From: an uncultured archaeon
Lineage (GTDB): Archaea > Thermoproteota > EX4484-205 > JAAOZP01
Length of the DNA stretch: 64,000 nucleotides
Assembly (NCBI GenBank): GCA_938045545.1
Contig: CALIBN010000007.1
Span: 64,001 to 128,000, forward strand
Direction: 5' to 3'
Every line of letters starts with the position of its first letter. Positions within the stretch are counted from its first letter, which is position 1. The position numbers were made by a program, and so were the translations under genes. The notes beneath the pieces are model-generated. The model worked only from the letters and a program-made list of their open reading frames with translations, did no database searches and was not told where the DNA came from. Below, one piece after another: positions 1,633 to 47,100 of this stretch.

Positions 1633-1636
1633 GTTA

Positions 1637-25923: not shown

Positions 25924-27186
25924 ATGCTAGTTAAGATACCTTTCGGAAAGGGCTTTGAAGAGTGTGAGATTGAGGATTCCAGGATCCATGCTCATCTCGA
26001 GCCATCTTGGCCCACGCCTGGTAACCCTGATTTTTTCATTGAAAACGCTTTATCGAATCCGATAGGGTCTAAAAGCCTTGATGAGCTTGCCGAGAGTGCG
26101 GGCAGGATACTAATTATTACTAGTGATAACACTAGGCCCGTCCCGAGTAAAACTACTCTTCCAAGGCTTATCTCAAAAATGAAGAAGGCGTCGCCACAGG
26201 CTTCTATACGGCTGCTAGTGGCTACCGGGCTACACGAATGGTCTCCCAGTGGAAGCGAGTTGAAAGAGAAGTTCGGTCAGGCGCTGGACTATTTAGATGA
26301 GTTTGTTATTCACTCGGCTAAAAACGTTGGTTCGCTGGTTAACCTCGGCTCGTTGTCAACCGGCAACAGGCTTTACGTAAACACTCTTTTAAAAGAGGCC
26401 GACCTAGTGGTTTCTGAGGGATATATTGAGGGCCACTTCTTCGCAGGCTTCACCGGGGGGCCGAAGAGTGTTCTCCCCGGCGTTTCAGGGGTTGAGACCA
26501 TAATGAACAATCACTCTCCGAGAAACATTGATCATCCGAACGCCAGGTGCGGTGTTGCTGAGGGAAACCCTATATACGAGGAGATGCTGGAGGCAGCAAA
26601 CATGGCAAGACTCCGCTTCATTCTGAACGTCGTGTTAGACGGTAGGAAGCGGATGCTTTCAGCCTTCGCAGGAGACCCGATTGAAGCGCATAGAAGTGGC
26701 CGTGTCTTCACTTTAAAATACTGCGGTGTGAAGCCAGTCCCAGGGGATATAGTAATAACTTCAAACGGCGGTTATCCTCTAGACCGAAACCTCTACCAGC
26801 TTGTTAAAGGTATTTCAAACGGTGCCCTGACGGCTAGGGAGGACGGTGTAATCGTGGCGTGCGGCGAATGCGTAGACGGGGTTGGGCACCAAGGGTTCTA
26901 CGAGATGCTTGCCTCCTCAAGCAGCCCAGGCGAGTTTCTAAGGAGACTTAGGTCTGGAGAAATATGGAGGGAGGCGCAATGGGAGGCCCAGGTTTTGGCG
27001 AGAGTCTTAGAGAAGTTTCGCGTGATAGTTGTCTCAAGAGGCGTGGATTCGAAAACAGTTGAATCCATGCATATGATGCATGCGAAAAGCCTGAAGGAGG
27101 GTTTGGAAATCGCTCTTAGCCTCAAGCCTCTGGGGAGGATAACTCTTCTCCCCGACGGCCCTTCCACAATACCTCTTCCACAATAA
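25924..27186 (+). CDS. larA: Nickel-pincer-dependent lactate racemase (LarA) family 2-hydroxy-acid racemase/epimerase
   Basis: SDNTRP, ATGLH, HFFAGFTGGPKSVLPG, NNH and GGYPLDRNLYQ. Confidence 0.85.
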   Translation: MLVKIPFGKGFEECEIEDSRIHAHLEPSWPTPGNPDFFIENALSNPIGSKSLDELAESAGRILIITSDNTRPVPSKTTLPRLISKMKKASPQASIRLLVATGLHEWSPSGSELKEKFGQALDYLDEFVIHSAKNVGSLVNLGSLSTGNRLYVNTLLKEADLVVSEGYIEGHFFAGFTGGPKSVLPGVSGVETIMNNHSPRNIDHPNARCGVAEGNPIYEEMLEAANMARLRFILNVVLDGRKRMLSAFAGDPIEAHRSGRVFTLKYCGVKPVPGDIVITSNGGYPLDRNLYQLVKGISNGALTAREDGVIVACGECVDGVGHQGFYEMLASSSSPGEFLRRLRSGEIWREAQWEAQVLARVLEKFRVIVVSRGVDSKTVESMHMMHAKSLKEGLEIALSLKPLGRITLLPDGPSTIPLPQ

Positions 27187-27227
27187 GCGGTTAGCAGCAT
27201 ACTGTCTATGCGGATTATCTGCCTACA

Positions 27228-27851
27228 TTACCATCTGGTGAATTCAACCGTCTTATCTCTCTTAGGCGGGATGCCGGATGTGTGCACAAGATACCGGATC
27301 TGTGAGGAAGCCTCGATCATACAGGTGACGTGGTAAGCCTCTTCCAGGAGCTTAGCCGCGGCGAATGTTCCGTGACCCCTCACCACAACCCCCTTATAGT
27401 GTTTAAGCGCCTCCGAAACCTTTTCCTCAAGCTCCTTGGAGCCGCTCACTTCTTTAACAACAAGCACAGGTACTTTTCTAAGCACGTAGTCTCCCTCGGC
27501 ATCCATCGGAATTATCTCGTCGAAAATCAGTGAGCAGACTATCGAGTAGGGTGGGTGAGCATGTACAACGGCCAGTGCTGAAGTATTAAGATATATGGCC
27601 CTGTGAACCATGGTTTCAGAAGAGCTTAATAGTATGGAACTATCCTCCTCGAAAAGGTCTACTTCAACAATGTCCTCAGGCCCTATCTCGTCGGCAGCCG
27701 CACCCCTCCTTTTAATATACATCTTATCGCCAACCCTAACGCTTATGTTTCCGCTATGGCTAACCATGTAGCCTTTGTCGAAAAGCTTCTTGCCATACTT
27801 GCTTATCTCCTTCCAAACCTCGCTTACACCACTAATGTTCAATTCTCTCAA
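27228..27851 (-). CDS. Class II (Zn) aldolase/adducin family, L-fuculose-1-phosphate aldolase-like
   Basis: SGNISVR, SSETMVHRAIY, VVHAHP and VRGHG. Confidence 0.85.
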   Translation of the reverse strand: MRELNISGVSEVWKEISKYGKKLFDKGYMVSHSGNISVRVGDKMYIKRRGAAADEIGPEDIVEVDLFEEDSSILLSSSETMVHRAIYLNTSALAVVHAHPPYSIVCSLIFDEIIPMDAEGDYVLRKVPVLVVKEVSGSKELEEKVSEALKHYKGVVVRGHGTFAAAKLLEEAYHVTCMIEASSQIRYLVHTSGIPPKRDKTVEFTRW

Positions 27852-27939
27852 TTTTCCTTCTCATTAAAAGTAATATTTAAAGACTCTGGGCGTTATTACG
27901 CAACTCTTTCCCCATCTTGTTTGCAATAATCTGCCTGAG

Positions 27940-28200
27940 CTAGTCTTACTCCTCCTCGATAAAGATGAGGAGTTCGCTATGCTGGGAGACTAGGGTTATC
28001 TGAAATCTTAAAGAGGCTTGATAGGCTTGAAAAACTAGGTTAGGCCGTGGGAGGATCAGAATAAGCTTTGGGAAGAGGTTAGGAGCATAAGGAGCGAGAT
28101 CCGATACATGAGAGCCGAGTTAAGAGCTTCGGAAGAGCTGTTGGAAGGACTTTACAACGGCATTCGTGGAAATCATCCTGGAAGAGAGGGTTACGCTAGG
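27940..28200 (+). pseudogene. Remnant of an archaeal coiled-coil / PD-(D/E)XK (DUF3782-like) gene
   Basis: Frameshifted pieces read LLLDKDEEF(R)YA..GRLGLSEILKRLDRLE and WEDQNKLWEEVRSIRSE. Confidence 0.5.
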
Positions 28201-28418
28201 GCGCGCTCCAATAATCTTCAAACAGCACCAACTAAAGGTTTACACTCCCCAACTCCCATGGATTTAAGCATAGCTATTTTTTAATTTTTTAATTCACATA
28301 AAGAATCGTATACGTTGCATTGGAAGCTCATTCATTTTTTTAAAAGAAGCTATCACCTCAGCTTCTGGAAGCAAGCTTGTTGCCCCTGTAAGCATGATTT
28401 CCAGTTTAACCCTTCTGT

Positions 28419-30197
28419 CTAACCATCCAAGTCCAATTTCTCAATTGTTCTCCTAGTTGGGCGCCCCTCATTATCCCATCCTCTTGCCCTATAATACTCG
28501 TTAAGCATTAGGTCGAGCTCAACAACCTGCCCCTTTGTTGGTCCATCAGCCAATGGCTCGCTTAGAAGCCTCTTAGGAAGAGTATCATCCCTCCTGCTAA
28601 ACCCCTCTCTTATGTTGAAAAGCCTCTCGAGGTTCCATATTCTCTCGCCTACGAGCATGAGGTCTTCAGCCGTATACTTTACGCCGGTTGCAGCTGAAAG
28701 CATCCTTGAGTAGTATTCTTCGTCAAGCCCGTATCCTGTGAACCTGCATGCTACGAGCGTATCCATGGCTGCGTAAAGGTTCTGCTGGTATATCACTAGG
28801 CCGGCCTTGTTGACCGTCGAAAACCTGTCTATCCTCTTCGGAACCCCAAGTATTTCCAAGCCTATCATATACGACCTTAGGTGGCAGCCTCCCCTGTTGC
28901 TTGTGGCGTATGCTAGCCCCTGCCCCTTCGCTCCCCGGGGGTCGTAGGCGGGCAGCTCCAAGCCTTTAACATGCATGGCTGCATCTGGATCCCCGTATTT
29001 CTCAGCGAGCCTACGCGAGCCCTCTGCAAGATCGTTTCCGAAGCCCTTCCTGTAAGCGGTTTCCTCAATCAGCTCCATGATTTTATCCCCGTCGCCCCAC
29101 TTTACTTCCTCAGGCGTCAAACCCTTCTCGCTAAGCTCCATCGCGCAGGCTATCGTAACGCCTGTTGAAATAGTGTCCAGCCCAAGGTCGTTGCACAAAT
29201 TGTTTGCCCTCCAAATCGTCTCAAGGTCCCAAAGCAGGCAGCAGGAGCCAAGTGAGAAGACTGTCTCATACTCCGGCCCCTCGCCCTCAGCACTGTCTAG
29301 ACGAGTCCTCCTGCCGCACGAGATCCCGCATCCGAAGCATGCCTTAGGTTTAACAAGCAGCCTCCTGGTTATCTCCTCTCCAGCAATATTCCTTGCCTCA
29401 GGCACGAAAGTTGCCTGGAAGTTTTTAGCCGGCAGCACGCCAAGCTCGTTCATAAGATTTACTAAAACAGCCGTCCCAAACCTGGGTAGGGCTTTACTCG
29501 TAATAGGGTTCTGGCCGAAAACCCTGTTGCATTCTCTGACTACGAAGAGAAAATTCTCCTTGTCGGCGATTTCAACTGTCTTGCTTCCTTTTGCGACGAT
29601 TGCTTTCAGCTTCTTCGAACCCATTACTGCGCCGACCCCGCCTCTCGCAGCAGCCCTGTAGTAGTCGTTCATTATTCCCGCTATTCTCACAAGGTTTTCC
29701 CCCGCAGGGCCTATGCACGCTACCCTGGCTTCCTTCCCGAACTTTTCAGTCAACATGCTCGTGGCTTCAAACACTCTCATACCCCAGTATTTTTCACCGT
29801 CTAGAACCTGAATATCCTTATCATCCATGTATATTATCACCGGGTTTTGAGCTGCTCCCCGGATTACGAGCACATCGATGCCGCATGCTTTGAACCTGGT
29901 TGCGAAAAATCCTCCCGAGTTTGCGTCGAATATCGTGCCTGTCAACGGGGATTTGGTTGACACGGAGAACCTGCCTGAAGTCGGCGCAGCCGTTGCCGTA
30001 AGCGGGCCGACTGCGAAAACCAGCACGTTATTCTTGCTTAAAGGGTCAACTTCAGGGCCAACGTTGTCGTAGACGATTTTAGCTCCTATTCCTCTTCCAC
30101 CGATAAACCTGAGCTTCTCATCCTCATTCCACGTGCGAAAAGTTATCTTTGAACTAGACAGGTCTACCTCGGCGATTGATCCCATCCAGCCTGCCAT
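28419..30197 (-). CDS. aor: Tungsten-type aldehyde:ferredoxin oxidoreductase family protein
   Basis: GGRG, KSPLTG, GPAGENLV, RGGVGAVMGSKKLK, CFGCGISC, GPEYET, DLGLDTIS and RGGCH. Confidence 0.92.
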   Translation of the reverse strand: MAGWMGSIAEVDLSSSKITFRTWNEDEKLRFIGGRGIGAKIVYDNVGPEVDPLSKNNVLVFAVGPLTATAAPTSGRFSVSTKSPLTGTIFDANSGGFFATRFKACGIDVLVIRGAAQNPVIIYMDDKDIQVLDGEKYWGMRVFEATSMLTEKFGKEARVACIGPAGENLVRIAGIMNDYYRAAARGGVGAVMGSKKLKAIVAKGSKTVEIADKENFLFVVRECNRVFGQNPITSKALPRFGTAVLVNLMNELGVLPAKNFQATFVPEARNIAGEEITRRLLVKPKACFGCGISCGRRTRLDSAEGEGPEYETVFSLGSCCLLWDLETIWRANNLCNDLGLDTISTGVTIACAMELSEKGLTPEEVKWGDGDKIMELIEETAYRKGFGNDLAEGSRRLAEKYGDPDAAMHVKGLELPAYDPRGAKGQGLAYATSNRGGCHLRSYMIGLEILGVPKRIDRFSTVNKAGLVIYQQNLYAAMDTLVACRFTGYGLDEEYYSRMLSAATGVKYTAEDLMLVGERIWNLERLFNIREGFSRRDDTLPKRLLSEPLADGPTKGQVVELDLMLNEYYRARGWDNEGRPTRRTIEKLDLDG

Positions 30198-30294
30198 GTT
30201 AAGTGTCGGGAAAGATGTCTTGTAAGTATTTATAAGTGTATTGTAGGAATACTCGGTAAAAACATATAAGCATGAGGAGGCTGGAAGAAACGGA

Positions 30295-30537
30295 ATGAAG
30301 ATTCTGGTTAAGTATTTCGCCTCCTACAGGGAGGCTGTGGGAAAATACGAGGAGGAACTGGAGCTTACACCCGGCTCAACCGTTAAGGAGGTTCTCGAAG
30401 AGATAGTTTCGAAGCATCCTGGAGTTGAGGTTGATAAGGAGGCAATAATTGTCTTAAACCAGAAGATAGTTAGGGATAATCCGGAAGTTAAAGATGGCGA
30501 TGTTCTGGCAATTTTCCCGCAGCTGGGTGGCGGGTGA
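30295..30537 (+). CDS. moaD: MoaD/ThiS/SAMP ubiquitin-like sulfur carrier
   Basis: MKILVKYFASYRE...DGDVLAIFPQLGGG with a C-terminal diglycine. Divergent from the AOR gene. Confidence 0.85.
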   Translation: MKILVKYFASYREAVGKYEEELELTPGSTVKEVLEEIVSKHPGVEVDKEAIIVLNQKIVRDNPEVKDGDVLAIFPQLGGG

Positions 30538-30630: not shown

Positions 30631-31416
30631 ATGAAGTTCTCAGTCCAAGAGAATCTTGTTCCCGGTGCTAATTTAGAGGAGAAGCTTAGGAAGCTTGAAA
30701 ACTATGGTTATGACGGTATTGAGCTTTGGGGGAGACAGGAGCTCGGCGGGGTTCTAAAGAATGTTTTGGATGCGTTATCCACCACTAGCGTTAAGGTGAG
30801 CACTATTTGTTCAGGATACTCGGGAAGCCTGCTTTCTCCAAGAAGAGAAGACAGGGAGGCGGCATTAAAAGGGATAAAGGAGAGGCTCGAGTGGGCTAAT
30901 AGGCTTGGTGCGGTAGGGGTTATAACGGTACCGGTCTTTGGGGAGGCAACTGTTCCAGACCTTTCTCCTCTTTTCAAAGACAAGTTTGAACTGGAGTGGA
31001 AGCTGGCTGTAGAAGAATACAGGATTCTTGGGAGGCATGCGAGGGATGTTGGAAGCATAGTGATTGTGGAGCCGCTTAACAGGTATGAGACTCACTTCCT
31101 CAAGACGCTTTCTCAAGCCGCCTCGCTCTGTGAAGAAGTCGGCTTAGACGAGGTGAGAATAATGGCTGACTATTTCCACATGAGTATTGAGGAGGTTGAC
31201 ATCGGGTCAAGCCTGAGGAAACATCTTGAAAAGATTGTTCACGTGCACCTTGCTGACAGCAACAGGTTGACGCCAGGAAGAGGACATACTGATTTCAGTT
31301 CTTTGAGGATTCTGAGAGAAGGAGGCTATAAGCATTATCTTACCTTGGAGTGCGGCGTACCCGGCGAGCCTGATGAGGAGTTGAGAAGAACGCTAAGCTT
31401 CCTTAAATCATTCTGA
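30631..31416 (+). CDS. Sugar phosphate isomerase/epimerase (xylose-isomerase-like TIM barrel)
   Basis: GYDGIEL, VEPLNRYE, DYFHM, HVHLADSNR and PGRGH. Confidence 0.88.
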   Translation: MKFSVQENLVPGANLEEKLRKLENYGYDGIELWGRQELGGVLKNVLDALSTTSVKVSTICSGYSGSLLSPRREDREAALKGIKERLEWANRLGAVGVITVPVFGEATVPDLSPLFKDKFELEWKLAVEEYRILGRHARDVGSIVIVEPLNRYETHFLKTLSQAASLCEEVGLDEVRIMADYFHMSIEEVDIGSSLRKHLEKIVHVHLADSNRLTPGRGHTDFSSLRILREGGYKHYLTLECGVPGEPDEELRRTLSFLKSF

Positions 31417-31449: not shown

Positions 31450-32481
31450 TTGAAGCCTGTTGATCGCGTGCTCACTACGCTTAATCATGAGGAGCCCGAC
31501 ATGGTTCCCTGCCTCTGGGCTGTTGCAGACGGCCTCAAACAGCTTCAAGAAGCTTTCAGGGCCAGAGAAATGCCCCAGGATCTTGTGGGCGTAGGAAGCA
31601 TTCCGGAGACAAGGGTTTTAGAGCAGGGTTCTGAACACAGGCTTTTAGAATCCGTTTTCGGAGACGTGCATCGCGTCTCTTACAAAGTGTATTATGGTTA
31701 CAGGGAGTTAGTTAAGCCAGCCGTCTCAAAGCCGGAGGATCTTAATAGGCTTGAAGAACTACGGTTCGAATTATCTAGAGAAAATGTTAAGAGGATCAGG
31801 GTGAATGTTGAGAAAAACAGTGATCGCTTCACCTTCATAAGTCACGAGAGCCCTTTCGGCTTAGCAGCATACTCCTTAAGGGGTTTCAAACAGTTTCTAA
31901 CAGACATAGTTGTTAACCCGGGTTTCGCCAAAAAGATTCTCAGTTTCGGAGTTAAGGTGCTTATGGAAATGTCAAGGCAAATAATAGAGGAAACAGGTGT
32001 TAATGCTGTCTGGCTTTCAGGCGACCTGGGTGATCGCAACGGCCCATTCGTGTCGCCAAACCTCTACAGGGAAATTCTAGAGCCATTTGACCGTGAGCTT
32101 TGCAGGATCTACCATAAGCTGGGGACCTATGTTTTCATCCACAGTCATGGTAATCTGAACCTTATTCTTGACAGGCTGGTTGACGCGGGGTTTGACGGCT
32201 TAAACCCTTTGGATGAGGCTGAAAACATGGTTCTCGCTTCTGTGAAGGAGAAATACGGGAGCAAGGTGACCCTAATACCTCAGCCGTCTACCTATAAATT
32301 GGAGAAGATGCCTAGAAGCCTGATAGAGAAATATGTTGCAAACCAGCTTCACGCCGGGGCTCATGGCGGAGGTTTCATATACTACGGTGTAATAGTTAAC
32401 ATGCCTCTTGAAAACGCTGAGGAATACGTTAAGGCTTTTTTAAAATTGAGGAGTTACCCGTTGCGGTGCTGCAGGAGGTGA
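31450..32481 (+). CDS. UROD/MtaA family protein
   Basis: DRVLTTLNHEEPDMVP, LRG, GDLG..GPFVSP, HSHGN and GGGFI. Confidence 0.8.
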   Translation: MKPVDRVLTTLNHEEPDMVPCLWAVADGLKQLQEAFRAREMPQDLVGVGSIPETRVLEQGSEHRLLESVFGDVHRVSYKVYYGYRELVKPAVSKPEDLNRLEELRFELSRENVKRIRVNVEKNSDRFTFISHESPFGLAAYSLRGFKQFLTDIVVNPGFAKKILSFGVKVLMEMSRQIIEETGVNAVWLSGDLGDRNGPFVSPNLYREILEPFDRELCRIYHKLGTYVFIHSHGNLNLILDRLVDAGFDGLNPLDEAENMVLASVKEKYGSKVTLIPQPSTYKLEKMPRSLIEKYVANQLHAGAHGGGFIYYGVIVNMPLENAEEYVKAFLKLRSYPLRCCRR

Positions 32482-32582: not shown

Positions 32583-33161
32583 ATGAGCATGATTGAGAAA
32601 ACCATAGTCTACTTTAGCACGCCTGGGAGGATCAATACTGAGACTGTTCTAGTTTTAGCGAGAAAGAGGGCTGAGGAGCTCGGCATAAGAAGCATCGTCG
32701 TCGCGTCTACAACGGGCGAAACTGGAGTTAAGGCCTCGCAGCTGTTTAAGGGCTTCAACCTGGTTGTCGTAACCCATCATACGGGCTTCAAAGAGCTTGG
32801 GCAACAGGAGTTGACTGAGGAGAACCGTAGAATAATAGAGGCAAACGGCGCTAAGGTTTACACCGGGACGCATGTCTTCATGAATGTTGAGAGGGCGATA
32901 AGAAGCAAGTTTAACACCGCTTACCCTGCTGAGATAATGGCTCAGACCCTTAGGCTTTTCTGCGAGGGCATGAAGGTGGCTGTCGAGATCGCAGCAATGG
33001 CTGCTGACGCTGGCCTAATACCTGTGGACAGGGATGTGGTGAGCATAGCTGGAACCGGTAGGGGTGCTGACACCGCTATAGTTGTCCAGCCTGCTAACTC
33101 TTCTAGGATATTCGACATGATTATTAAAGAGATCATAGCTAAGCCTCTGAGCAAGGCATGA
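32583..33161 (+). CDS. Stand-alone pyruvate-kinase C-terminal alpha/beta domain protein (MTH1675-like)
   Basis: IVYFSTPG..NT, IVVASTTGETG, VVVTHH, GMKVAVEIAAMAADAG and GTGRGADTA. Confidence 0.8.
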   Translation: MSMIEKTIVYFSTPGRINTETVLVLARKRAEELGIRSIVVASTTGETGVKASQLFKGFNLVVVTHHTGFKELGQQELTEENRRIIEANGAKVYTGTHVFMNVERAIRSKFNTAYPAEIMAQTLRLFCEGMKVAVEIAAMAADAGLIPVDRDVVSIAGTGRGADTAIVVQPANSSRIFDMIIKEIIAKPLSKA

Positions 33162-33176: not shown

Positions 33177-34010
33177 ATGGTTGAACATGGCTTTGCTGAA
33201 GCCTGTGATAAAAAAGAATTTGGAGGGCGTAGCGCCTTGTTCAGCCAGGTAGGGAAAGGGCTTAGGTTAAGCAGGATTTTCTCTAAAGACGGGAAAACGC
33301 TGATCATCGGTCTTGACTCTACTTTCGCAGGCGGACAGGTTGAAAACCTGTGGAGAACGCGAAGCATCCTGACAAGCGTTTTAAAGTCTAATCCGGATGC
33401 CGTCATCCTTAGCAAGGGACAGGTCACCGGGCTGGAAAGCCTGATCGGAGGCAGAGGGCCCTCTGTTATAATAAGGTCTGATTTCACGAATGCTGCGGTG
33501 GGCTATTCGACACTGCCCCGTAAAAAACTCGAGCATGTTAAACTAGTTAACCCTAGAGAGGCTTTGACATTGGGTGTTGAAGGTGTTGCCGCTTATCTTC
33601 TCGTCGGGGATGAGGATGAGGAGGCTAGAAGTATTAGAATTGTTTCAACACTCGTCTCGGGCTGCCGAAAGCTGGGGCTTCCACTCCTCGTGGAGACAAT
33701 AGCATTAGGTGAGCGTGTCACTCAGGCTAACCGCCTAGACTGTTTAAAGCTTGCCGTCAGGATGGCTATTGAAGCGGGTGCCGACCTGGTTGCAGCACCA
33801 TATGTTGGAGACGAGAAGTCTATGCGCTCCATAGTCGAGGTGTCTGGTCAAACCCCGGTTGTCGCAGTTGACGATGCTGGGACTCCTCTATCAGAGCTTA
33901 GGAACGCTCTCTCAGCAGGATGCCTAGGCCTTCTTTTAAGGGAGAGACTGGCCTCGGGCGACGTTGAGGAGACTGTTGCGGAAGCCAGGCTTCTAGTCCA
34001 CGGGTGTTAA
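33177..34010 (+). CDS. DhnA/class I aldolase-like protein lacking the Schiff-base lysine
   Basis: Colinear with the downstream aldolase (GKGLRLSRIF, EALTLG, GLPLLVE). It has GADLVAAPY where the family has GADxxKxxY. Confidence 0.75.
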   Translation: MVEHGFAEACDKKEFGGRSALFSQVGKGLRLSRIFSKDGKTLIIGLDSTFAGGQVENLWRTRSILTSVLKSNPDAVILSKGQVTGLESLIGGRGPSVIIRSDFTNAAVGYSTLPRKKLEHVKLVNPREALTLGVEGVAAYLLVGDEDEEARSIRIVSTLVSGCRKLGLPLLVETIALGERVTQANRLDCLKLAVRMAIEAGADLVAAPYVGDEKSMRSIVEVSGQTPVVAVDDAGTPLSELRNALSAGCLGLLLRERLASGDVEETVAEARLLVHGC

Positions 34011-34012
34011 GA

Positions 34013-35248
34013 ATGCAGATCGGCAAGAGGCTTAGGCTGAAAAGAATATTTGGCGAAGACGGGAGAGCCGTGGTCGTCGCCGCTGACCATGGGCTTATGC
34101 TTGGACCAATAAGGGGCGTTGTCAACCTGAGGGAAACACTTACCAGGGTTATTCAAGGGGGTCCAGACGCCATTCTTCTAACCCCTGGGCAAGCATCCAG
34201 TCTAATAGACCTTTTCTACGGAAAGGATGCCCCTGCACTCTTGGTAAGAGCCGATTGGACGAACGCGTTCAGGGACAAGACCTACACTCTCCCGGCCAGA
34301 GTCATACGCGACGTAGACACAGTGAGGGTGGAGGATGCTTTAGCCCTAGGAGCCACCGGAATAGTAGTATACCTTTTCATGGGTTTGGGCGACGAAGACG
34401 AGGAGGCTAGAAACATTGAAATGGTATCGGTGTTTTCACGCGAATGCGAGAAACAAGGCATGCCCCTCATAGTTGAGCCCCTCCCAATGGGTGAACGGGT
34501 AACGAAGGCGAACTACGTCGACCTCGTAGCTCTTTCAGTGAAGATCGCCGCTGAGCTTGGTGCGGATGCGCTTAAAGTCCCATACACAGGCGACCCGTAC
34601 ACTTTTGAAAAGGTTGTTAAAACTGCCGGTGGAATACCGGTGCTAGCCTTAGGTGGCTACAGTGGAGTCACCGTAAGAGACTCGCTGGAGGTTGTTGAAG
34701 AGGTCATGCAGGCGGGTGGTTCCGGAATCGTCTACGGAAGGAACATAGTGCAGGCCCAAGATCCCGGGGAGATGGTAAGGCTCGTAAGGAGCATAGTGCA
34801 CGAGGGTAGGAGCGCCTTGGAGGTGGTTGGAGCCGCCAAGAAGGGGAGGATTTCCCTCAGGGTTGAGCCAGCCCTCTGCGTCGGCTGCAGCCTGTGTGCC
34901 GCTGTCTGCAGCCTCTACCATGATGGGAGCATAGATATTGGGCGTGCTAGGCTCAGAGTTTTACAGGAGTGGCCAAGCGGAGCCAAGCCGGTTGTATGTG
35001 TTCAATGCGGGAAATGCATATCCGTCTGTCCAACTGGAGCCTTAAAATGGGGCTCGAAAGGTAATGTTGAGCTTGAGGAGAAGCTTTGCACATCCTGCAT
35101 GGCTTGCGTGGAAACATGCCCGCAGAAGGTCATCGTGTTCGACGAGAAGAGGAATATTCCTCTGTTTTGCGACCTTTGCGGCGGGGTTCCCCAGTGCTCG
35201 GAGTGGTGCGGCACAGCAGCCATAAGGATCGTAGAGGAGGATGCTTAA
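34013..35248 (+). CDS. DhnA/class I aldolase fused to a C-terminal 4x[4Fe-4S] ferredoxin domain
   Basis: AADHG, GADALKVPY and YGRNIVQ. These are followed in the same frame by CVGCSLCAAVC, CVQCGKCISVCP, CTSCMACVETCP and CDLCGGVPQCSEWC. Confidence 0.85.
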   Translation: MQIGKRLRLKRIFGEDGRAVVVAADHGLMLGPIRGVVNLRETLTRVIQGGPDAILLTPGQASSLIDLFYGKDAPALLVRADWTNAFRDKTYTLPARVIRDVDTVRVEDALALGATGIVVYLFMGLGDEDEEARNIEMVSVFSRECEKQGMPLIVEPLPMGERVTKANYVDLVALSVKIAAELGADALKVPYTGDPYTFEKVVKTAGGIPVLALGGYSGVTVRDSLEVVEEVMQAGGSGIVYGRNIVQAQDPGEMVRLVRSIVHEGRSALEVVGAAKKGRISLRVEPALCVGCSLCAAVCSLYHDGSIDIGRARLRVLQEWPSGAKPVVCVQCGKCISVCPTGALKWGSKGNVELEEKLCTSCMACVETCPQKVIVFDEKRNIPLFCDLCGGVPQCSEWCGTAAIRIVEEDA

Positions 35249-37061
35249 AATGAAGGGTGGCTACACGGGCAGGGTTCTAAGCTTCGACCTCTCCTTAGAA
35301 AAGGCTAAAGTTGGGGACTTGAACGAGAAGGAGGCTTTCCTACTGCTCGGTGGAAAGGGTCTTGGAGCCCTTCTCCTCTACAGGAGTCTGCGAGGTAAAG
35401 AGGATCCTCTCTCCCCTGAAAACCCTCTCATAGTTTCAACAGGGCCCTTGACAGGGACGATTGCTCCAACAGGCACTAAGTTCAGTGTTCTAACTAAAAG
35501 CCCACAGACAGGTGTTTTCCTCGATTCAAACTGCGGAGGAATGTTTGGAGTGCAGCTTAAGAGAGCCGGCTACGATATGCTTATTGTCAAAGGGGCTGCT
35601 GAAGAACCCTCCATGCTAATAGTTGATGAAAACGGTGCTGAGCTTAGGCCCTGCAGGCTATGGGGCGTGACGACGTTTGAAACAATCGCGGAGCTTAAGA
35701 AGGAGTTTCCCAACCGCGGCATCCTAGTAATCGGGCCCGCGGGTGAAAGGCTTGCTCCAATATCCGGATTGTTGACGGACGACGCGAGGTCTGCAGGCCG
35801 TGGCGGCTCTGGTGCAGTAATGGGCTCTAAAAGGCTTAAAGCAATAGTAGCGGGAGGCAGGAGACCAATAGAGGTTTATGATGCTGAGGGGATGAAGAGG
35901 GCTGCCTGGGTGGTCAGGAGGATGCTCAGGCTGCATGAGGTTACTGCGAGAAGCCTTCCGAGACACGGGACGGTGAACATAATAGAGGCTGTCAACGAGA
36001 TGGGGGCTCTCCCAACGAGAAACTTTCAAAAAGGCAGGTTCGACGGCGCGGGCGAGCTTTCAGGGGAGAAATGGAGGTCCGGTCTTTGGAGGAGGGATAA
36101 GGGTTGCTACGGCTGCACTATAAGGTGCGGGAAAATCGCTGTTTTAAACGGCTCATGGGTCGACGGGCCGGACTACGAGACCATCTGGGCGTTCGGTCCA
36201 AACTGCGGTATCAAAGATACTAAAACAATAGCTATGGCTAACTATCTTTGCGACGACTACGGCTTAGACACGATAAGCACCGGCGTCACGATAAGCTTCC
36301 TAATGGAGCTCTACGAGAAAGGCTTCATCCAAGACTTGGACGGGTTGAAGCCCATGTGGGGGGACGAGGATGTCTTTCTCAAGCTTGTGGAGAAAGCGTG
36401 TAAGGGCGAGGGGTGTGGAAGAATGATTGAGCAGGGTGTAGCCAGGGTGAGCGGAAAGTTCCCGGGCAGCGAGGCCTTCGCAATGCACGTGAAAGGATTG
36501 GAAATGCCTGCTTACGAGCCGAGGGCCGCTAAAGGAATGGGTCTTGGCTACGCGACCAGCGACCGGGGGGCGTGCCATCTTAGAGGATACACTGCTGGGC
36601 AGGAGCTGCTTGGGTACGGTGGGGGCGTAGACCCGTACACTATTGAGGGCAAGGCTAGGCTAGTGATAGATAGGCAGGACGAGAAGGCTGTGATAGACTC
36701 TTCAGGCCTATGCTTCTTCGCGTTTTACGCAATAACTCTTAAAGAGCTGCACCGCATGATTGTTGCCTGCACCGGGCTCCCCTATAAAGACTGGTATGAA
36801 TTAATGAGGATAGGGGAGAGAATCTACAACTTGACGAGGCTTTTCAACATTAGGGAGGGGTTAACCAGGAAGGATGACACTCTGCCCAGCAGATTCTTAA
36901 AGGAACCCATGCCCGAGGGACCTGGAAAAGGACAGGTGGTTGAGCTTGAACAGATGCTTTCCGAATACTATAGGCTCAGGGGTTGGAACGAGAAAGGTGA
37001 GCCTAAAAAGGAAACTCTTGATAGTCTAGGGTTAAACGAGCTTCTTAAGACGAACGAATAG
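35241..37061 (+). CDS. aor: Tungsten-type aldehyde:ferredoxin oxidoreductase family protein (start may be 35250)
   Basis: GGKGLG, KSPQTG, GPAGE, GRGGSGAVMGSK, CYGCTIRC, GPDYET, DDYGLDTIS and RGACH. Confidence 0.92.
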   Translation: MLKMKGGYTGRVLSFDLSLEKAKVGDLNEKEAFLLLGGKGLGALLLYRSLRGKEDPLSPENPLIVSTGPLTGTIAPTGTKFSVLTKSPQTGVFLDSNCGGMFGVQLKRAGYDMLIVKGAAEEPSMLIVDENGAELRPCRLWGVTTFETIAELKKEFPNRGILVIGPAGERLAPISGLLTDDARSAGRGGSGAVMGSKRLKAIVAGGRRPIEVYDAEGMKRAAWVVRRMLRLHEVTARSLPRHGTVNIIEAVNEMGALPTRNFQKGRFDGAGELSGEKWRSGLWRRDKGCYGCTIRCGKIAVLNGSWVDGPDYETIWAFGPNCGIKDTKTIAMANYLCDDYGLDTISTGVTISFLMELYEKGFIQDLDGLKPMWGDEDVFLKLVEKACKGEGCGRMIEQGVARVSGKFPGSEAFAMHVKGLEMPAYEPRAAKGMGLGYATSDRGACHLRGYTAGQELLGYGGGVDPYTIEGKARLVIDRQDEKAVIDSSGLCFFAFYAITLKELHRMIVACTGLPYKDWYELMRIGERIYNLTRLFNIREGLTRKDDTLPSRFLKEPMPEGPGKGQVVELEQMLSEYYRLRGWNEKGEPKKETLDSLGLNELLKTNE

Positions 37062-37719: not shown

Positions 37720-38745
37720 TTAGCACGAAAACAGTTGCCCTGCATTGTTTCGAAACGTATTCCCAATGATGCGTGGATTGTTTTTTACTGCTTTAATCAT
37801 CGTCTTAACATTCTCTACTGGAGTTTTCGGATGCAGGGCACAGGCTGGAGCCACTATTCTGATTCCGAGGTTTAGGCATGAGAGCGAGGCTTCAACAATG
37901 CTCTTCTCATCACCTTCCAGCAGTAGAAATGTACTTACTCCTCCTGCTAACGTTACGCCTCGGATCAAGTCTTTCGCAACCCTGAGGTTGGTTTTAGGGT
38001 CTACGTGGAAGACTTTAACACCTGTCTCAGGTATGTCTTTCAAAATCTTTAAAGTGTCTCCGCATATGTGTAGTATACAGGGGACATTTAACATTGAGGT
38101 CAACCGTTTAAGAGGCTCTACTTCGACAGTTCTGAAGATCATGGGGTTAAGCACGTCCGGTGATGAAGCCATGTCCTCAATCACGATAGCATCCGCCCCG
38201 GCGGAAACAATTTCCATGGCGTAATTCGCTATGGATGCTGAAAGCTGGTAAGTGTAATCCTTAATGAGATCCGGATCCCTTCTACTTAGCAACATGGTTT
38301 TAGCAGGGCCAAGCAGATAGTTGAGAAGGGTGAAAGGACCCGTGACGCCGCCGAGTATAGGAAAACCCGGTCCAACCGCTTCCCTAAGGTCTCCGATTAC
38401 GTCTAAAACCATACTCGTCCTACCTCTCCCCATAAAGTTGAACTCTTTTATCTTCTCCAAGAGTGTCCTTGGTTTAGGGTAATGACCCTCGAAGTCTAGC
38501 TCAACGCCGAGGGCTTCGGCTTCAACACACTGGTCGAAAGGGACCCGTATCGTTTCAAAACCAATTACTTGCTTAGCTGCTAAGGCGGCTTTAACCATGT
38601 GTTCACGGCTCCTGTGGACTGATGGCCATGTTGAGCCGCATATATTGAGTAACTCTTCAGTTAAAGGGCTAGTTATTGCAGTTGCCATCGGTCTCACCAT
38701 GTTTTCACCGCGCACTAGTGAGAGGAAGAGGCTTCTCCGATCCAA
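37720..38745 (-). CDS. MtaA/CmuA-type methylcobamide methyltransferase (UROD superfamily)
   Basis: RVPFDQCVEAEALG and GPFTL. Zn ligands in LHICG and APAC. TPVENV. Confidence 0.8.
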   Translation of the reverse strand: MDRRSLFLSLVRGENMVRPMATAITSPLTEELLNICGSTWPSVHRSREHMVKAALAAKQVIGFETIRVPFDQCVEAEALGVELDFEGHYPKPRTLLEKIKEFNFMGRGRTSMVLDVIGDLREAVGPGFPILGGVTGPFTLLNYLLGPAKTMLLSRRDPDLIKDYTYQLSASIANYAMEIVSAGADAIVIEDMASSPDVLNPMIFRTVEVEPLKRLTSMLNVPCILHICGDTLKILKDIPETGVKVFHVDPKTNLRVAKDLIRGVTLAGGVSTFLLLEGDEKSIVEASLSCLNLGIRIVAPACALHPKTPVENVKTMIKAVKNNPRIIGNTFRNNAGQLFSC

Positions 38746-39516: not shown

Positions 39517-40291
39517 ATGACGTATTCACCCCCAGTTTTCGTTAAAGAGCTCGTGGTTAAATATGGTTCTTTCGTTGCTGTCGACGGTATTTCATTCACC
39601 GTTGAACCCGGGGAAATATACGGACTTCTCGGTCCCAACGGGGCTGGTAAAACCAGCACTTTGAAAAGTGTTAACCGGGCTTTTAAAGCCTGCTTCCGGG
39701 AGAGTTGAAATATTCGGCAGGCCTCTTTCAGACGAGGTTGCTGTGAAAAGCATGATGGGCTATGTTCCGGAGGAGGTCATTCTGATGGATTCACTAACCC
39801 CAAGGGAATTCCTAGAATTCGTCGCCTCCATTAGGCGTCTAAACGCAGACACGGTTAACACGCGGCTTGAGAAACTGGTTTCAGCGTTTCAACTCAGAGA
39901 GTATTTCGACACACCTATCGCAGCCCTTTCCAAGGGGAATAAGCAGAAGGTCGCGGTAGTAGCGGCTCTGATGCACGAGCCAAAGCTCCTAATTCTAGAC
40001 GAGCCCCTGATAGGGCTTGACGCGTTCTCATCTAAAATACTCAAGGAACTGTTGACTTTCCACGCGAGCAAGGGTGGTGCAGTGATTTTTTCAACACACA
40101 TCATGGAGGTTGCTGAAAGACTCTGCACGAGAGTGGGTATAATAAACAGGGGGAGGATGGTTGGTGAGGGCACAGTCGATGGTCTTCGAAAACTGGTTAA
40201 GAGCGCGGAAGGCTCCTTAGAGGAAATATTCTTGAAGGTGACTGAGCAGGAGGCTGGAGTCCAGGAGATAGTTAAAGCATTGGAGGCGTAG
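39517..40291 (+). pseudogene. ABC exporter ATP-binding protein with a +1 frameshift in an A4 run (39664-39667)
   Basis: Walker [10 protein letters not shown] is in ORF 39517-39708. LSKGNKQK, LDEP and STH are in ORF 39668-40291. Confidence 0.75.
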
Positions 40292-41993: not shown

Positions 41994-44090
41994 ATGGTGA
42001 AAGGCATGAGTGAGGAAAAAGAATTCCTCCTCGGCAAATTTTTGAAGTCTCGAGGATTCATAGTTGGCCTAGTAATCTCCATAGTGATGATGCTAATACA
42101 GCTTTCAATAGACTGGACCAACGTTAATCTGACGCTGTGGGGTATGAATGCTGGCGCATTTCTAGTCCTATTTGTGCTGGCAATACTTGGCTACTTTCTC
42201 AGTTCCCTGAGGCTCAGGGCAGACGAATACGCTATCGTTTTCGCCATGGTGACGGTGAGCCTTGGCTTCGCCTGGTCTGTAGCCGTACCATTTTCAATAT
42301 CGATTTTCAACACAGCTTGGGAAAAACAATGGTGGTACATGGGATACTGGGTGTCCACAATACCGGGAGCCCTGGAGATGAGCCCCCTTTTCGGAGTAAA
42401 GGACGCAGAGGCGGCTTTAGCTGCTTTCACCGGGGGAACCTCTGTTCCTTGGGCGGCTTGGGCGCCTGCGTTAGGCTACTGGATCGTCTTCACGATAGTC
42501 TTGGTAGTATTCATGATTTCAATGGGGATGATACTTCGGAAACTATGGATAGACATTGAGAAACTTCCGTTCCCATATTTGAACATTACTAATGAGCTTA
42601 TCAATTTGGGTCTTGGCGTAACCGAGAAGCCCCGCGTGAAAAAGATACTGATAGGCATACTCATAGGCTTTCTACTAATGCTCGGGAACCTAATAGATGC
42701 CTTGGCACCCGGGAGAGGATGGAACCTGTGGCAGACCTACCACATTGAAGCCTTGGAGGTCGCATTGCCCAATTCAAGCTGGTTCTTCAGCGTTTCACCA
42801 TCTCAGCTAAGCTTATGGTATCTCGCACCGCTGGATGTTCTCTTCACCGCCGTAATCGCCTGGTTTATATTCGCAGACATTATTCCAGCCATATCAGCTT
42901 GGGCAGGATACGCGGCGCTGCAGGCACCTTGGGGAAGCTCCGGGGGAGCATGGCACAACATGGCTTCAGGCGCTATCGCACCTGTTTCCGGCGGTATGAT
43001 CGGATGGGGCGCGATGATCGGCTTAGGCCTCTGGCTTCTCGTCTACGCAAGGAAATACATTGTTTCCACGCTTAAAAACGCGTTTGGCAAGAAGGTGCTG
43101 GACGAGTCTAACGAGCCGTTCTCGTACAGAACTCTCTGGCTGGCCTTCATAGTTTCAATCGTGCTGCTCATAGTGCTCATGGTCGCCGTCTACATTCCAG
43201 TCTGGGCAGCAGGTATAATCGTAGTATATACTTGTCTCCAGTATGTTGCGACATCCAGGATCCGTGGTGAAAGCATAGCGAAGGGTGACATTCCCTGGGA
43301 ATCACAGGAGGTTTTGGCCACGCTATTGTCTCAAGCAGGCCTCTACTCGCTCGTCGGACCCCAAGCATCGGCAGCGTCTCAAGCTGCATACGGGCCAGGT
43401 GCCTACACGGCTTGGAACATGGGTTACGTGGTGACTGGGCACTACACGTGGTACTGGGGCGGCGCGGGCACGCCTCAGAGCGCTCAGCTTGAAGCCTTCA
43501 AATTGGCGACTTTAACCAAAACACATAACAGGGCTATGGCTATTTCAACCATTGTGGCCATGGTCCTCGCTGTCCTCATATGTCTCCCGCTGTGGCTGGT
43601 CTTCACGTACATGATTGGGATTGACAAGGGCTTCGGGCATGGCGGCACCCTCTACAGCCAGTGGGTCAGCCCAGCATGGTGGAGTCAAGAAGCCATTTTT
43701 AACGCTGCTTTTAACCAAGCTCAAGGCTGTTCCTGGTTTAACTGGAACAAGGACCTGCTGGGACTTGAGCTGGCGAACTGGGCTGCAGGCTTCTTCCTCG
43801 CCGGAGTTCTTCTCTGGGCTAGGGTTGCATTCGCCCGGTTTCCATTGAATCCGGTGGGTCTCATCATAGGCTTGTGCCAGCCTGCACACTGGCTTTGGGG
43901 CTACCTTCTTGTCGCATGGGTTTTGAAGTTTATAACGTTTAGAATAGGCGGCTCAAAGCTCTATGAAGAAAAAGGCGTGCCGCTGGCGATAGGGATATTC
44001 CTAGGCTCATTCATAGTATCCATAATTACCGACATATTCCTGCCGGTTGCACAAGCAGGAATAGAATGGGCTCCTGCTGTTCCAGGTTGA
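41994..44090 (+). CDS. OPT-superfamily-like multi-pass membrane protein (cassette 2, gene A)
   Basis: About 16 TMs. Motifs VPWAAWAPAL, WIDIEKLPFP, YLAPLDVL and LKFITFRIGGSKLYEEKGVPLAIG. Confidence 0.72.
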   Translation: MVKGMSEEKEFLLGKFLKSRGFIVGLVISIVMMLIQLSIDWTNVNLTLWGMNAGAFLVLFVLAILGYFLSSLRLRADEYAIVFAMVTVSLGFAWSVAVPFSISIFNTAWEKQWWYMGYWVSTIPGALEMSPLFGVKDAEAALAAFTGGTSVPWAAWAPALGYWIVFTIVLVVFMISMGMILRKLWIDIEKLPFPYLNITNELINLGLGVTEKPRVKKILIGILIGFLLMLGNLIDALAPGRGWNLWQTYHIEALEVALPNSSWFFSVSPSQLSLWYLAPLDVLFTAVIAWFIFADIIPAISAWAGYAALQAPWGSSGGAWHNMASGAIAPVSGGMIGWGAMIGLGLWLLVYARKYIVSTLKNAFGKKVLDESNEPFSYRTLWLAFIVSIVLLIVLMVAVYIPVWAAGIIVVYTCLQYVATSRIRGESIAKGDIPWESQEVLATLLSQAGLYSLVGPQASAASQAAYGPGAYTAWNMGYVVTGHYTWYWGGAGTPQSAQLEAFKLATLTKTHNRAMAISTIVAMVLAVLICLPLWLVFTYMIGIDKGFGHGGTLYSQWVSPAWWSQEAIFNAAFNQAQGCSWFNWNKDLLGLELANWAAGFFLAGVLLWARVAFARFPLNPVGLIIGLCQPAHWLWGYLLVAWVLKFITFRIGGSKLYEEKGVPLAIGIFLGSFIVSIITDIFLPVAQAGIEWAPAVPG

Positions 44091-44093
44091 TAT

Positions 44094-44121
44094 TTCCCCC
44101 TTTTTTCTATACTTTTTTAAA
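44094..44121 (+). terminator. Oligo-T terminator after gene A; the second T-run may also be the TATA box of gene B
   Basis: ttcccccTTTTTTctatacTTTTTTaaa directly after the stop codon. RBS AGGTGA at 44137-44142. Confidence 0.5.
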
Positions 44122-44149
44122 CAGGATTAGGCATGAAGGTGAGTAGGGA

Positions 44150-47100
44150 ATGCCTCTGCAGAGAAAAATCCTGCTTCGAAGAATATTGAGAGTAAAGCTT
44201 AATCAGCTGCCGATTATCTTCTTCTTATGCTCAACGATCGTTTTTAACGCTGTTTATAAAGTGGAGGCAGACGGCCTGCAGGCCTTTAAAAATGGCGATA
44301 TTTTAAACACCATTAACGTAGACGCTATTCGCGGGCACGTAAAGTATCTATCCGGCCTAGGATGCAGGACTCCCGGTCACCCGGGCTATGAAGCCGCTGC
44401 GAAGTACATCTATGAAAACTTCGTGAAAACTGGTCTTAAACCGGGTCCTTACGGTTACTTTGAAAACTTCACGGTTCTAGTCCCCGTGGTTCACGAGGCA
44501 AGGGTTCAAGTATTATCCCCGTTCCAGTTTACTCTTGACAATGTTTTAACAATGTACCCGATGGGTCTAAACCCGGGTGTGACTCCCCCGGAGGGTATTG
44601 AGGGGAGGCTGGTCTACGTTGGGAAAGCATCCCTGTCGGAGCTTGATGGAAAAAACCTTAATGACACGATAGTGCTTGTGGACTATGAAAACAGCGGGAA
44701 TTGGATTCGCACGGTGATGTTTGGTGCTAAAGCAGTGCTGTTCGTTGAACCCGAAGCCTATAATAACGTTCAAAGTTCTTTAAACGCTAGGCTTCCGGAT
44801 GCACCTCGATTAGCTTTCAGGGGAGGAGTCAACTACCTAGGCATCCCGCTAAATATTCCTAGGCTTGTGGTTTCAAGAAGGGATGCGGAGAATCTGATCG
44901 ATCTTCAGGCAAGCGGTGAGGTTAAAGTAAGAATTAGGCTGAATGCTTCCTGGGAGGAAAAGCCAGCTTGGAATATTTTAGGCGTAATACCTGGAAGGAG
45001 AGAAGAGGTTGTGATTTTAAGCGCATACTATGATTCACAATCATACGTAGTTGGGATGGCTCCTGGAGCAGATGAGGCCATAGGCATTGCGACGATCATG
45101 GAGCTGGCTTCCTGCTTTAAGGATAATCCCCCGGAGAGAACCGTATGGTTTCTTGCTATAGGCTCTCACTACGGAGGGTTAAAGGGCTCTAGAGATTTTG
45201 TGGAACGGCACTTCGAGGAAACGGGCAAGAAGATCAGCATGTGGATAAACTTCGATCTGGCTTCCGACGTGAGCGATCTAGGAGTGTTCTTCTGCGGGTA
45301 CAACTATTATTTCGAAGCCTCCCTCTTAAGGTATACTTGGCTCCGTGATAGATTATTCGGGTCGCGGTCCGAGGTGAAGAATATCCTGCAGAACCTGGGC
45401 CTCGACATAAATGTTGAAGACGGTTTACGCGTGAGGGAATGGAGAACATACTTGCCAACTAACCTTGCTTTCGACCATGAACCGTATGTTGTGGCGGGAG
45501 GAGTCGGCATAACAGTAGCTACCGCAAATTCTTTCAGAACCTTCCGCTCCACGCCTTCTGACACCTATGAGAATAGTCTCGGCTCTCAGAGAAGGTTTGA
45601 AAACACTAGGAAACAGGTTAGGTTTATTGCAGCCTTAGCATCAAGCCTGATAAACGGTCCTGACTTCGGAAGCAAGGGCATTGGGCCAACGAGGTACGCT
45701 TTACAGCCAAATGCAGGCGGGTTCGTTACTTTAACTGGGAAAGTTGTTACATATGATTATGCGAAGGGATGGTTTAAGGAGGTGCCTCACGCACTGGTTT
45801 CAGTCCGCCTGTCTTATATGGAAGGAGGGTATTCTCCACATTTCTACTCTTTATGTAAAACGGATGAGAACGGCGTTTTTGTGGTTCACGGACTGCCTTC
45901 AGAGACAACCTATACGGGTGCGCAACAGCTGGGCGTGGGAGTTGCTGAGGTCGCGGTTCCAAAAGTTATTGTTGAGGCATTCGTCTTCAACGATAATGGA
46001 AGCATTATGTATGCCCCAGAGCTGTGGCAGCAAAGATCCGACGTATACCCTATTTCTTTCCAGGTTGACAGTGGGCGTATCGGGACCCCGGATGCACCCC
46101 GCTATTTTCCAGTCTTCCCATGCGGCTCAATAGTCTTATTCAACCTTGTTCCGCCGGTAAACCTGCTCGGGAGCATCTCTATTCTAGATTCGCGTGGTCA
46201 CACTCCACCTACTTCCTACGGCTATGTTCGCGACAGCTTCATTGAGGGCGAAGACATAACTATGATATTTGTCCCCGAAGACGTGCCTATTGAGGTTATA
46301 GCCTACAGCCCGGGAATACCTTTTCCCCAGGGAGTTTTGAAAAGTATTACTGAAGAGAATCGCGAGGGGCGAGGCTTCTCGGTTAAACAGGGTGAGACGT
46401 TAATCATCCTAGCCACTCCTTTAAGGCTTGTTAAGGATTTTCATCTTTTGAACAAGTATAGGCTTGACTTGGCGTCAAGCTACTTGGCTGCGAGCGCTCC
46501 CGCCTTAGAGTTCTCCAAAAATACGGGTAGTCTGTTAAACGAGGCTTCAAGATGTTTCTCGGCTGAAGCCAGGTTTAATTATTCTCGCCTCGTTTACGCT
46601 ACTTATGCTGCTTGGCAGAGCGAGATAAACGCTTACATGTTTACTAGGGGCCTAATTTTTGAAATAATTTCGTCAACCCTGTTCTTTTTCATACTTTTAG
46701 TTCCGTTTTCAATACTCTTTGTCGAACTCGTGTTCTCGCCGAGAAGCGGCCTGCAGAGAATATCATATGCGTGCGGGGCCTTCGCGCTTTTTACATTTCT
46801 GCTCTACTGGTTTCACCCTGGTTTCCACTTGGCGACAAACATCTATATAATGCTGGTTGGCATAGCGATCCTGGTTTTCGTCACCCCCGTCATAGGAATA
46901 CTGTGGGGCAGAATATCAGGCTTTATCAAAGCGTTTAGAGAAGAGATAATCGGCAAACATTTCGCCGAGATAAGCCGGTTCGGTGCAGTTCTCATAGCTT
47001 TCTCAATGGGCATATCTAACATGAGGAAGAGAAGGCTGCGGACTACTCTTACGCTTGTAACAATCACGTTGATAGTGTTCTCCCTTATTTCGCTAACATC

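Follow-up and report, generated by a model that had tools for sequence, protein, structure and literature searches.

Why should an archaeon join a class I aldolase to an iron-sulfur protein, and place the joined gene immediately ahead of an aldehyde oxidoreductase? The question is raised by a 64,000-nucleotide stretch of contig CALIBN010000007.1 from an uncultured archaeon of the Thermoproteota (the whole stretch is called the window here), in which one uninterrupted open reading frame (ORF; 34004-35248, plus strand) combines a Schiff-base aldolase of the DhnA type with a polyferredoxin and runs directly into a gene of the aldehyde ferredoxin oxidoreductase (AOR) family. An aldolase-like paralog that lacks the Schiff-base lysine lies just upstream. 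We consider it somewhat more probable than its contrary that the genes at 33177-37061 encode one complex, comprising a pterin-bearing large subunit (WorL), a small subunit that carries the aldolase (WorS-aldolase) and the dead paralog, which would cleave a ketose 1-phosphate and oxidize the released aldehyde at once.

The fusion ORF encodes 414 residues if translation begins at the GTG of 34004, or 411 residues from the ATG at 34013, the start that its homologues favor. From this ATG the aldolase domain occupies positions 34013..34840 of the plus strand, and Pfam assigns residues 23-250 to the DeoC/LacD aldolases (E 2e-35) and residues ~290-410 to 4Fe-4S dicluster families. The polyferredoxin domain, of the WorS/AorA type with four [4Fe-4S] clusters, follows in the same ORF at 34856..35248 (plus strand, stop codon included). 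Its cysteines, 16 within the C-terminal 137 residues, fall into three CxxCxxCxxxC motifs and one CxxCx5CxxxC motif, and all but one of them (15/16) are invariant across 16 aligned fusions. The AF2 model of the whole fusion reaches a pLDDT of 85.7 and a pTM of 0.78. Domains and cysteine motifs alike bear out the earlier note on this DNA, which had described one ORF holding a Schiff-base aldolase and a 16-Cys, four-cluster ferredoxin, with its end abutting the AOR gene. The AOR frame (35241..37061, plus strand) offers candidate ATG codons 8 nt before and 1 nt after the TAA of the fusion, the likely start being the ATG at 35250. On the other side, 2 nt separate the end of the paralog gene (33177..34010, plus strand, 277 residues) from the ATG at 34013. 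Across loci the junctions between the three genes are either overlaps or gaps of 1-2 nt. A promoter and terminator scan of the locus gave no signal above chance.

The fusion is real and is not an artefact of assembly. In a collection of 5.8 billion proteins, 119 of the 120 best clusters, 403-443 residues long, contain both PF01791 and Fer4 families, the sole exception (P0102, 275 residues) being an aldolase alone. The fetched loci (numbered with L below) yielded 67 two-domain ORFs, representing 46 distinct fused proteins, and a scan of 401 genomes of the phylum returned 22 strong matches, every one of them in an open frame of 410-455 residues. Contigs from the public runs of three studies, one of which may be the source of the window, span the domain junction and contain no indel within the ORF; the only indels in these bridging contigs are at 33166, 33210 and 37071. 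Two separate genes in place of the fusion, the finding that according to the earlier note would have overturned its account, were seen at none of the inspected loci. When the metagenome scan was seeded with an unfused aldolase (P0124), it recovered only fused loci (L097-L108, L124 and L156) and distant stand-alone aldolases of 27-37% identity, the locus of P0124 itself not being among them. The fused family is small: clustered at 50%, it consists of five full-length representatives and three junction-spanning fragments.

Two irregular loci were also seen. On a 3.2-kb contig a change of frame within the aldolase domain breaks the fusion in two (L023:1456-3233). On a 470-kb Chloroflexia contig (L033:8001-9543) the aldolase pair is reduced to three short broken pieces, followed by neither a ferredoxin domain nor an AOR; the module has probably decayed there.

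What does the ferredoxin domain do? Its best sequence matches among solved structures are the Fe-S subunit of WOR5 (6x6u_B, E 6e-21; 6x1o_B, E 5e-20), followed by the AOR Fe-S subunit of Aromatoleum (8c0z_C, 2e-17), 9mqx_E (4e-17) and 4z3w_E (BamC). Stand-alone homologues of the domain directly precede AOR genes in most of the loci L034-L092 that show an AOR; the order is reversed in L049, L062, L066, L069, L074 and L084, and some of these loci have no AOR in view. Because of these matches to solved subunits and this position before AOR genes, we regard the domain as a small subunit of the WorS type as classified in PMC13328260. The claim of the earlier note that many tungsten AORs have such a ferredoxin as their small subunit agrees with this homology. 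From homology and gene order we infer that the fused domain would bind the adjacent AOR as WorS on WorL.

The AOR itself matches AFOR_N at 215 bits (E 1e-64) and AFOR_C at 458 bits (E 4e-137), both above cut-off. It is nearest to the Pyrococcus furiosus AOR (1aor, 515 bits), then to 9mqx_D (486), 8c0z_A (448), FOR (343) and WOR5 (239). It is not GAPOR, since the NF040818 model, whose cut-off is 1300, gave 47 bits and matched residues 53-136 alone. The best reading of the gene is the large subunit of a dedicated two-subunit (WorL+WorS) oxidoreductase, putatively of the tungsten type. An AOR gene lies downstream of the fusion in all 41 loci with at least 700 nt of downstream sequence; our script flagged 39 of these, and L016 and L018, whose stop-to-stop frames overlapped beyond its limit, were confirmed separately. 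In a FastTree analysis of 79 AORs, the 24 that adjoin a fusion are set apart from all others by a branch whose SH-like support is 100, and they mix archaeal and bacterial members, although related rows in this tree are not independent.

The aldolase domain adopts the (beta/alpha)8 fold of the DhnA group. The nearest structures in Foldseek are the ADH synthase MJ0400 (2qjg, TM 0.89) and the fructose-bisphosphate (FBP) aldolase of Thermoproteus tenax (1ojx, TM 0.88), the TM values for these two enzymes spanning 0.87-0.89 and the E values 5e-23 to 7e-19. With both enzymes the domain shares the fold, the Schiff-base lysine, the aspartate and the GG and GR loops; unlike them, it has a hydrophobic residue in place of Tyr146, an invariant glutamate two residues earlier, a RADWTN motif and a longer loop after strand 3. 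In the T. tenax enzyme, which is described as forming decamers, catalysis is assigned to Tyr146, Asp24 and Lys177 (PMC4881948). A HMMER alignment equates D28 of the fusion with Asp24 and K191 with the Schiff-base residue Lys177, and both are invariant in 16 and again in 23 aligned fusions. In the larger set D28, H29, R82, D84, R90, E158, N170, K191, G217-G218 and G245-R246 are all constant; the GG and GR loops are putatively phosphate-binding, by analogy with phosphate sites in TIM barrels. Over all loci, lysine is kept at the K191 position in 45 of 46 fusions. Since neither counterpart of Asp24 and Lys177 varies in the aligned fusions, and since the GG/GR loops (23/23) and the lysine (45/46) are retained, the fused aldolase is probably active, and to this extent its sequence accords with the description of an intact Schiff-base aldolase in the earlier note. 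The exception, L178, is a second fused copy within its genome (L178:8051-9313, G061:C19), with Glu for K191 and Thr for E158, and the paralog and AOR are still present beside it. A similar second copy occurs at G124:C144 (44% identity).

That note had also placed the glutamate of an IVEP motif at the position of the catalytic tyrosine. The tyrosine is indeed absent, but the alignment, which sets V-E-P-L-P of the window against V-W-S-Y-P of T. tenax, pairs Glu158 with Trp144 and Leu160 with Tyr146. In the deposited T. tenax variant 1w8s the wild-type VWSYP is changed to VESFP, so that the natural fusions share with this engineered protein the arrangement of Glu for Trp and a residue other than Tyr. 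Two familiar assignments were considered and rejected. The fusion is not the housekeeping ADH synthase, because the genome encodes a separate one on another contig (327 bits against a cut-off of 299), beside asd (aspartate-semialdehyde dehydrogenase) and DHQ synthase II; and a pairing of FBP aldolase with GAPOR is ruled out, because the AOR does not resemble GAPOR and the tyrosine is missing from the aldolase.

The third member of the module is the upstream paralog, which shares 37% identity with the fused aldolase domain (DeoC, E 3e-10). In the Schiff-base region it reads GADLVAAPY where the fusion reads GADALKVPY, and both its GG and its GR loop are lost. None of 23 aligned paralogs has the lysine, the position being occupied by A, I, V, M or T, and most also lack D28/H29 and both loops, while the RxDWTN motif and the sequence surrounding position 158 are retained. 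Over all loci the lysine is missing in every one of the 42 paralogs seen. Such a paralog adjoins the module in all 37 loci with at least 800 nt of upstream sequence, 36 times upstream and once (L016) after the AOR; L124 was confirmed separately. A 1:1 complex predicted for the aldolase domain (residues 1-280) and the paralog gave an ipSAE of 0.67 against 0.00 for the best control, passing a mark that was attained in 58 of 80 solved complexes and in 2 of 110 mismatched pairs. The runs shared at least 92% of their contacts, with a partner pLDDT of at least 81, and the predicted interface involves residues 85-114 of the aldolase domain, that is, the DWTN motif and its loop. The modeled contact and the pattern of loss suggest that the paralog is probably a non-catalytic partner subunit. 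A stand-alone, Lys-less, paralog-like form was also seen in the protein libraries (P0130).

How might these parts work together? We propose that the AOR would serve as the pterin-bearing WorL, the C-terminal domain of the fusion as the four-cluster WorS and its N-terminal domain as an active Schiff-base aldolase, with the dead paralog packed against the active domain. The aldolase would split a ketose 1-phosphate through a Schiff base on K191, giving dihydroxyacetone phosphate (DHAP) and a 2-hydroxyaldehyde, with E158 likely replacing the tyrosine as acid/base. The tethered AOR would then oxidize the aldehyde at its pterin site to a 2-hydroxyacid, and two electrons would leave through five [4Fe-4S] clusters, one belonging to the AOR and four to the fused domain, to ferredoxin. 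Candidate pairs are lactaldehyde from a 6-deoxy-ketohexose 1-phosphate, glyceraldehyde from fructose 1-phosphate, glycolaldehyde from a pentulose 1-phosphate and sulfolactaldehyde from a sulfo-hexulose 1-phosphate. Because the aldehyde released from a ketose 1-phosphate always carries a 2-hydroxyl, the AOR would yield a 2-hydroxyacid, for example lactate, glycerate, glycolate or sulfolactate. There is precedent for the AOR step, since WOR1 of Eubacterium limosum, an AOR-type enzyme with a WorS subunit, oxidizes lactaldehyde (PMC11725836). The direction of the reaction, the class of substrate and any channelling are what we infer. More speculatively, the dead paralog might fill positions in an aldolase-type oligomer and so give the bulky ferredoxin-AOR arms room.

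Several observations weigh against this proposal. The Tyr146 position is L, I, M or V in all 23 aligned fusions; with the tyrosine replaced in every one, the chemistry may differ. The NCBIfam equivalog models all score far below cut-off (NF040816 FBA, 165.5 against 430; TIGR01949 ADH synthase, 167.3 against 299.45), and LsrF, which has the same fold, is by its NCBIfam name a thiolase. Unfused aldolases with RADW and VEP motifs exist in the protein libraries (P0124, P0126, P0128, P0129, P0132 and P0102). The separation of the AORs is a FastTree result only, in which the other 55 sequences were sampled through similarity of the ferredoxin domain. As solved homodecamers of this fold exist, the predicted complex with the paralog may reflect likeness only. 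Finally, a family profile scan found no sugar kinase in the window's own cluster, and the neighboring genes vary by lineage, so that there may be no single substrate. The unfused aldolases listed above are 264-282 residues long, carry RADWTN, (V/I)EP and the lysine, and are at most 59% identical to the fusion family.

The first of these observations bear on a different view of the aldolase-like domain, in which it is no carbon-carbon lyase at all but acts as a thiolase or in a transaldolase-type reaction, like LsrF or ADH synthase, or merely binds a sugar phosphate as a scaffold that oligomerizes a detoxifying AOR. The missing tyrosine would fit this view, as would the fact that the best family scores, all below cut-off, are to ADH synthase and LsrF-type models, and that L178 has lost both Lys and Glu and yet retains the trio. 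Nonetheless 45 of 46 fusions, drawn from different phyla, keep Lys, Asp, Glu158 and the GG/GR loops unchanged, and in the paralog these have decayed. Invariance of the catalytic residues in the fused copy, set beside their decay in the paralog, argues for catalysis in the former, and we hold a non-lyase domain to be very unlikely.

Does a fused gene imply that the aldehyde is passed on directly? The trio could instead be a Rosetta-stone fusion, in which aldolase and AOR belong to a shared pathway and are joined for co-expression or stoichiometry, while the aldehyde equilibrates with the cytoplasm. Everything that favors the tethered reaction favors this explanation in the same measure, sequence data being unable to separate co-localization from channelling; and AORs of the 1aor type generally accept a broad range of substrates, as those named in PMC11725836 illustrate. 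A defined assembly is nevertheless suggested by the constancy of the dead paralog, by the short, rigid-looking linker (pTM 0.78) and by the dedicated AOR clade, and we regard fusion without channelling as unlikely.

The genes around the module speak to the proposed substrates. In several loci FGGY kinases lie within about 3 kb of it (L014; L179, L180 and L181, which are one family; L174; L030), and a PfkB kinase lies near it in L106. Xylose-isomerase-like TIM-barrel genes are found in L017, L018, L021, L022, L026, L029, L031, L032, L097 and L103, and D-lyxose-isomerase-like genes in L106, L107 and L175; sugar isomerases or epimerases occur near the module in more than 10 loci altogether. Directly upstream of the paralog, L022, L026, L029 and L031 carry a nickel-dependent lactate racemase (499-503 bits; cut-off 460), and L103 has a gene of the LarA family in the same place, identified by its Pfam Lar_N/LarA_C match only. 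An Ldh_2 2-hydroxyacid dehydrogenase is present in L097. An enzyme acting on 2-hydroxyacids beside the module fits the proposed chemistry, and the kinases, isomerases and lactate racemase nearby agree with cleavage of a ketose 1-phosphate, although these recurrences are partly among kin. In loci of the Anaerolineales type (L022, L026, L031 and L103) an anion exporter of the TauE/SafE family directly follows the AOR, a hint that the product in this lineage may be sulfonated or acidic. Pairs of UPF0261 and PEP-hydrolase-like genes, and creatininase/IolN-like genes, were also seen near the loci with this exporter.

The same surroundings bear on whether the reaction might run in the biosynthetic direction, with reduced ferredoxin driving the AOR to convert a 2-hydroxyacid to an aldehyde that the aldolase captures with DHAP. 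Aldol addition is the favored direction, and tethered capture would matter most when the acid is being reduced, where it could pull an unfavorable reaction forward. AORs are able to reduce non-activated acids when given low-potential donors (PMC9295118). The module occurs patchily, however, and has glycoside hydrolases, sugar kinases and isomerases around it, a context typical of catabolic islands, and no biosynthetic neighbors recur at the examined loci; we judge the reverse direction to be quite unlikely.

The proposed cleavage of a ketose 1-phosphate coupled to oxidation of its aldehyde can be compared with several known systems. Closest are the class II WORs (WOR5/ASOR of P. furiosus, 6X6U and 6X1O; GOR of Caldicellulosiruptor bescii; PMC13328260), which likewise set an AOR large subunit beside a small subunit with four [4Fe-4S] clusters, have ferredoxin as the expected acceptor and share the gene order S then L. 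They differ in that the small subunit here bears a 277-residue N-terminal aldolase, that a dead paralog is always co-encoded, and that the large subunit is nearer to PfAOR (515 bits) than to WOR5 (239 bits). AorABC of Aromatoleum aromaticum and the bifurcating WOR1 (class III/IV nanowire WORs) also combine an AOR-type large subunit with polyferredoxin subunits and assemble to higher order through the small subunit; in contrast, no gene for a FAD/NAD subunit is adjacent here, either in the window or at the loci of relatives, and oligomerization would proceed through an aldolase-type core rather than a ferredoxin filament. In DmpFG and BphIJ, a class II pyruvate aldolase and an NAD/CoA acylating dehydrogenase pass an aldehyde within one complex. 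The logic is the same, an aldolase giving a reactive aldehyde to an oxidizing partner, but the folds and cofactors are unrelated: here a class I, DHAP-type aldolase would serve a pterin/Fe-S enzyme and is covalently fused to the electron-transfer subunit.

What appears to be new here, as read from sequence, is a WOR of class II type whose small subunit bears an aldolase and which has a pseudo-aldolase as its partner. A literature search, part of which was escaped by colon spellings of 'aldehyde ferredoxin oxidoreductase', found no description of an aldolase-ferredoxin or aldolase-WorS fusion, in line with the earlier note, whose author knew of no described example. The word 'aldolase' is absent from the main text and two supplement files of the 2026 WOR classification (PMC13328260), whose gene-neighborhood datasets may list the architecture, as well as from the Wolframiiraptor paper, and it occurs 0 times in the tungsten-enzyme review PMC12096430. 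The two-domain composition is already in database annotation as a JGI name, and we saw no functional account there.

A physiological role is defined for only five of 92 clades of tungsten oxidoreductases, according to PMC13328260. Against this background, the gene trio suggests a particular function for one branch of an enzyme family in which few functions are known. A whole AOR clade is tied by gene fusion to an enzyme that probably makes its substrate, which narrows the question of that substrate to a short list of testable ketose phosphates. If the proposal is true, this would be the first case found in which a class I aldolase is wired to a pterin/Fe-S oxidoreductase, with a conserved pseudo-enzyme partner. 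A more elaborate arrangement is a possibility that we regard as doubtful: active and dead aldolase subunits might alternate or stack in a large ring core from which ferredoxin-AOR arms radiate, forming a sixth architectural class of tungsten oxidoreductase devoted to direct oxidation of toxic 2-hydroxyaldehydes released by sugar cleavage. Were this so, anaerobes would possess a ferredoxin-reducing branch for deoxy-sugars, sulfo-sugars or ketose 1-phosphates, and one orphan AOR clade would gain a defined physiological substrate.

The module is widespread and patchy. Archaeal records of the fusion come from Bathyarchaeia, Thermoproteota/Thaumarchaeota, Brockarchaeota, Hadarchaeota and the Asgard groups Sigyn- and Lokiarchaeota, and bacterial ones from Chloroflexota, Bacteroidota, Ignavibacteriales (Ignavibacteriota), Zhuqueibacterota and Planctomycetota; spread over both domains, it is relevant to carbon turnover by uncultured anaerobes. 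In the window's own genus it is present in 6 of 17 genomes, with a fragment in one more (G012), and in the sample of the phylum it is present in 20 of 401 genomes and 8 of 161 genera. This patchy occurrence, together with an AOR clade that mixes archaea and bacteria, fits a transferable catabolic module.

Immediately upstream of the trio in the window, 16 nt from the paralog, lies a gene for a stand-alone domain resembling the C-terminal part of pyruvate kinase (PK_C, E 1e-11; 32583..33161, plus strand). It occupies this position only in loci of the same genus (L002-L006 and L050; in L002 as a 24-residue end cut by the end of the locus), and an Atlas search with it returned PK_C-domain clusters only and no function. 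Two further genes on the same strand may belong to the pathway: a xylose-isomerase-like TIM barrel of the ketose 3-epimerase/IolO type (30631-31416; 139 bits against an IolO-like cut-off of 300), and a URO-D-like protein recognized by profile match, which directly precedes the PK_C gene and the trio (31450-32481). The latter is one of four URO-D/MtaA-like genes in the 64-kb window (13707-14804, 31450-32481, 37720-38745 and 56079-57509), and a related gene follows the AOR in L021. Glycosidases of families GH2, GH4 and GH38 are encoded in the surrounding 60 kb of the window, together with MFS transporters, a GFO/IDH/MocA protein and a creatininase-like one.

The window contains a second AOR, on the minus strand at 28419-30197, accompanied by a ThiS-like 'WorX' gene (30295-30537), a LarA-like lactate racemase (25924-27186; 455.8 bits, cut-off 460) and a class II aldolase of the FucA type (27228-27851; PRK08660, 231 against 203). 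Taken together, the genes of 25924-30537 could constitute a route from lactaldehyde to lactate with an unfused aldolase. An ABC-transporter ATPase is divided between two overlapping frames (39517-39708 and 39668-40291), the second of which matches ABC_tran only from position 30, a probable frameshift or sequencing error. A duplicated cassette is found at 17-8073 and 41994-50582, each copy consisting of a DUF6785 membrane protein, a protein of ~1500 residues and a gene of ~630 residues. The ~1500-residue proteins (1637-6154 and 44150-48712) combine Peptidase_M28 with FtsX-like domains. In L175 and L178, DUF6785/DUF6784 proteins are found flanking the module as well.

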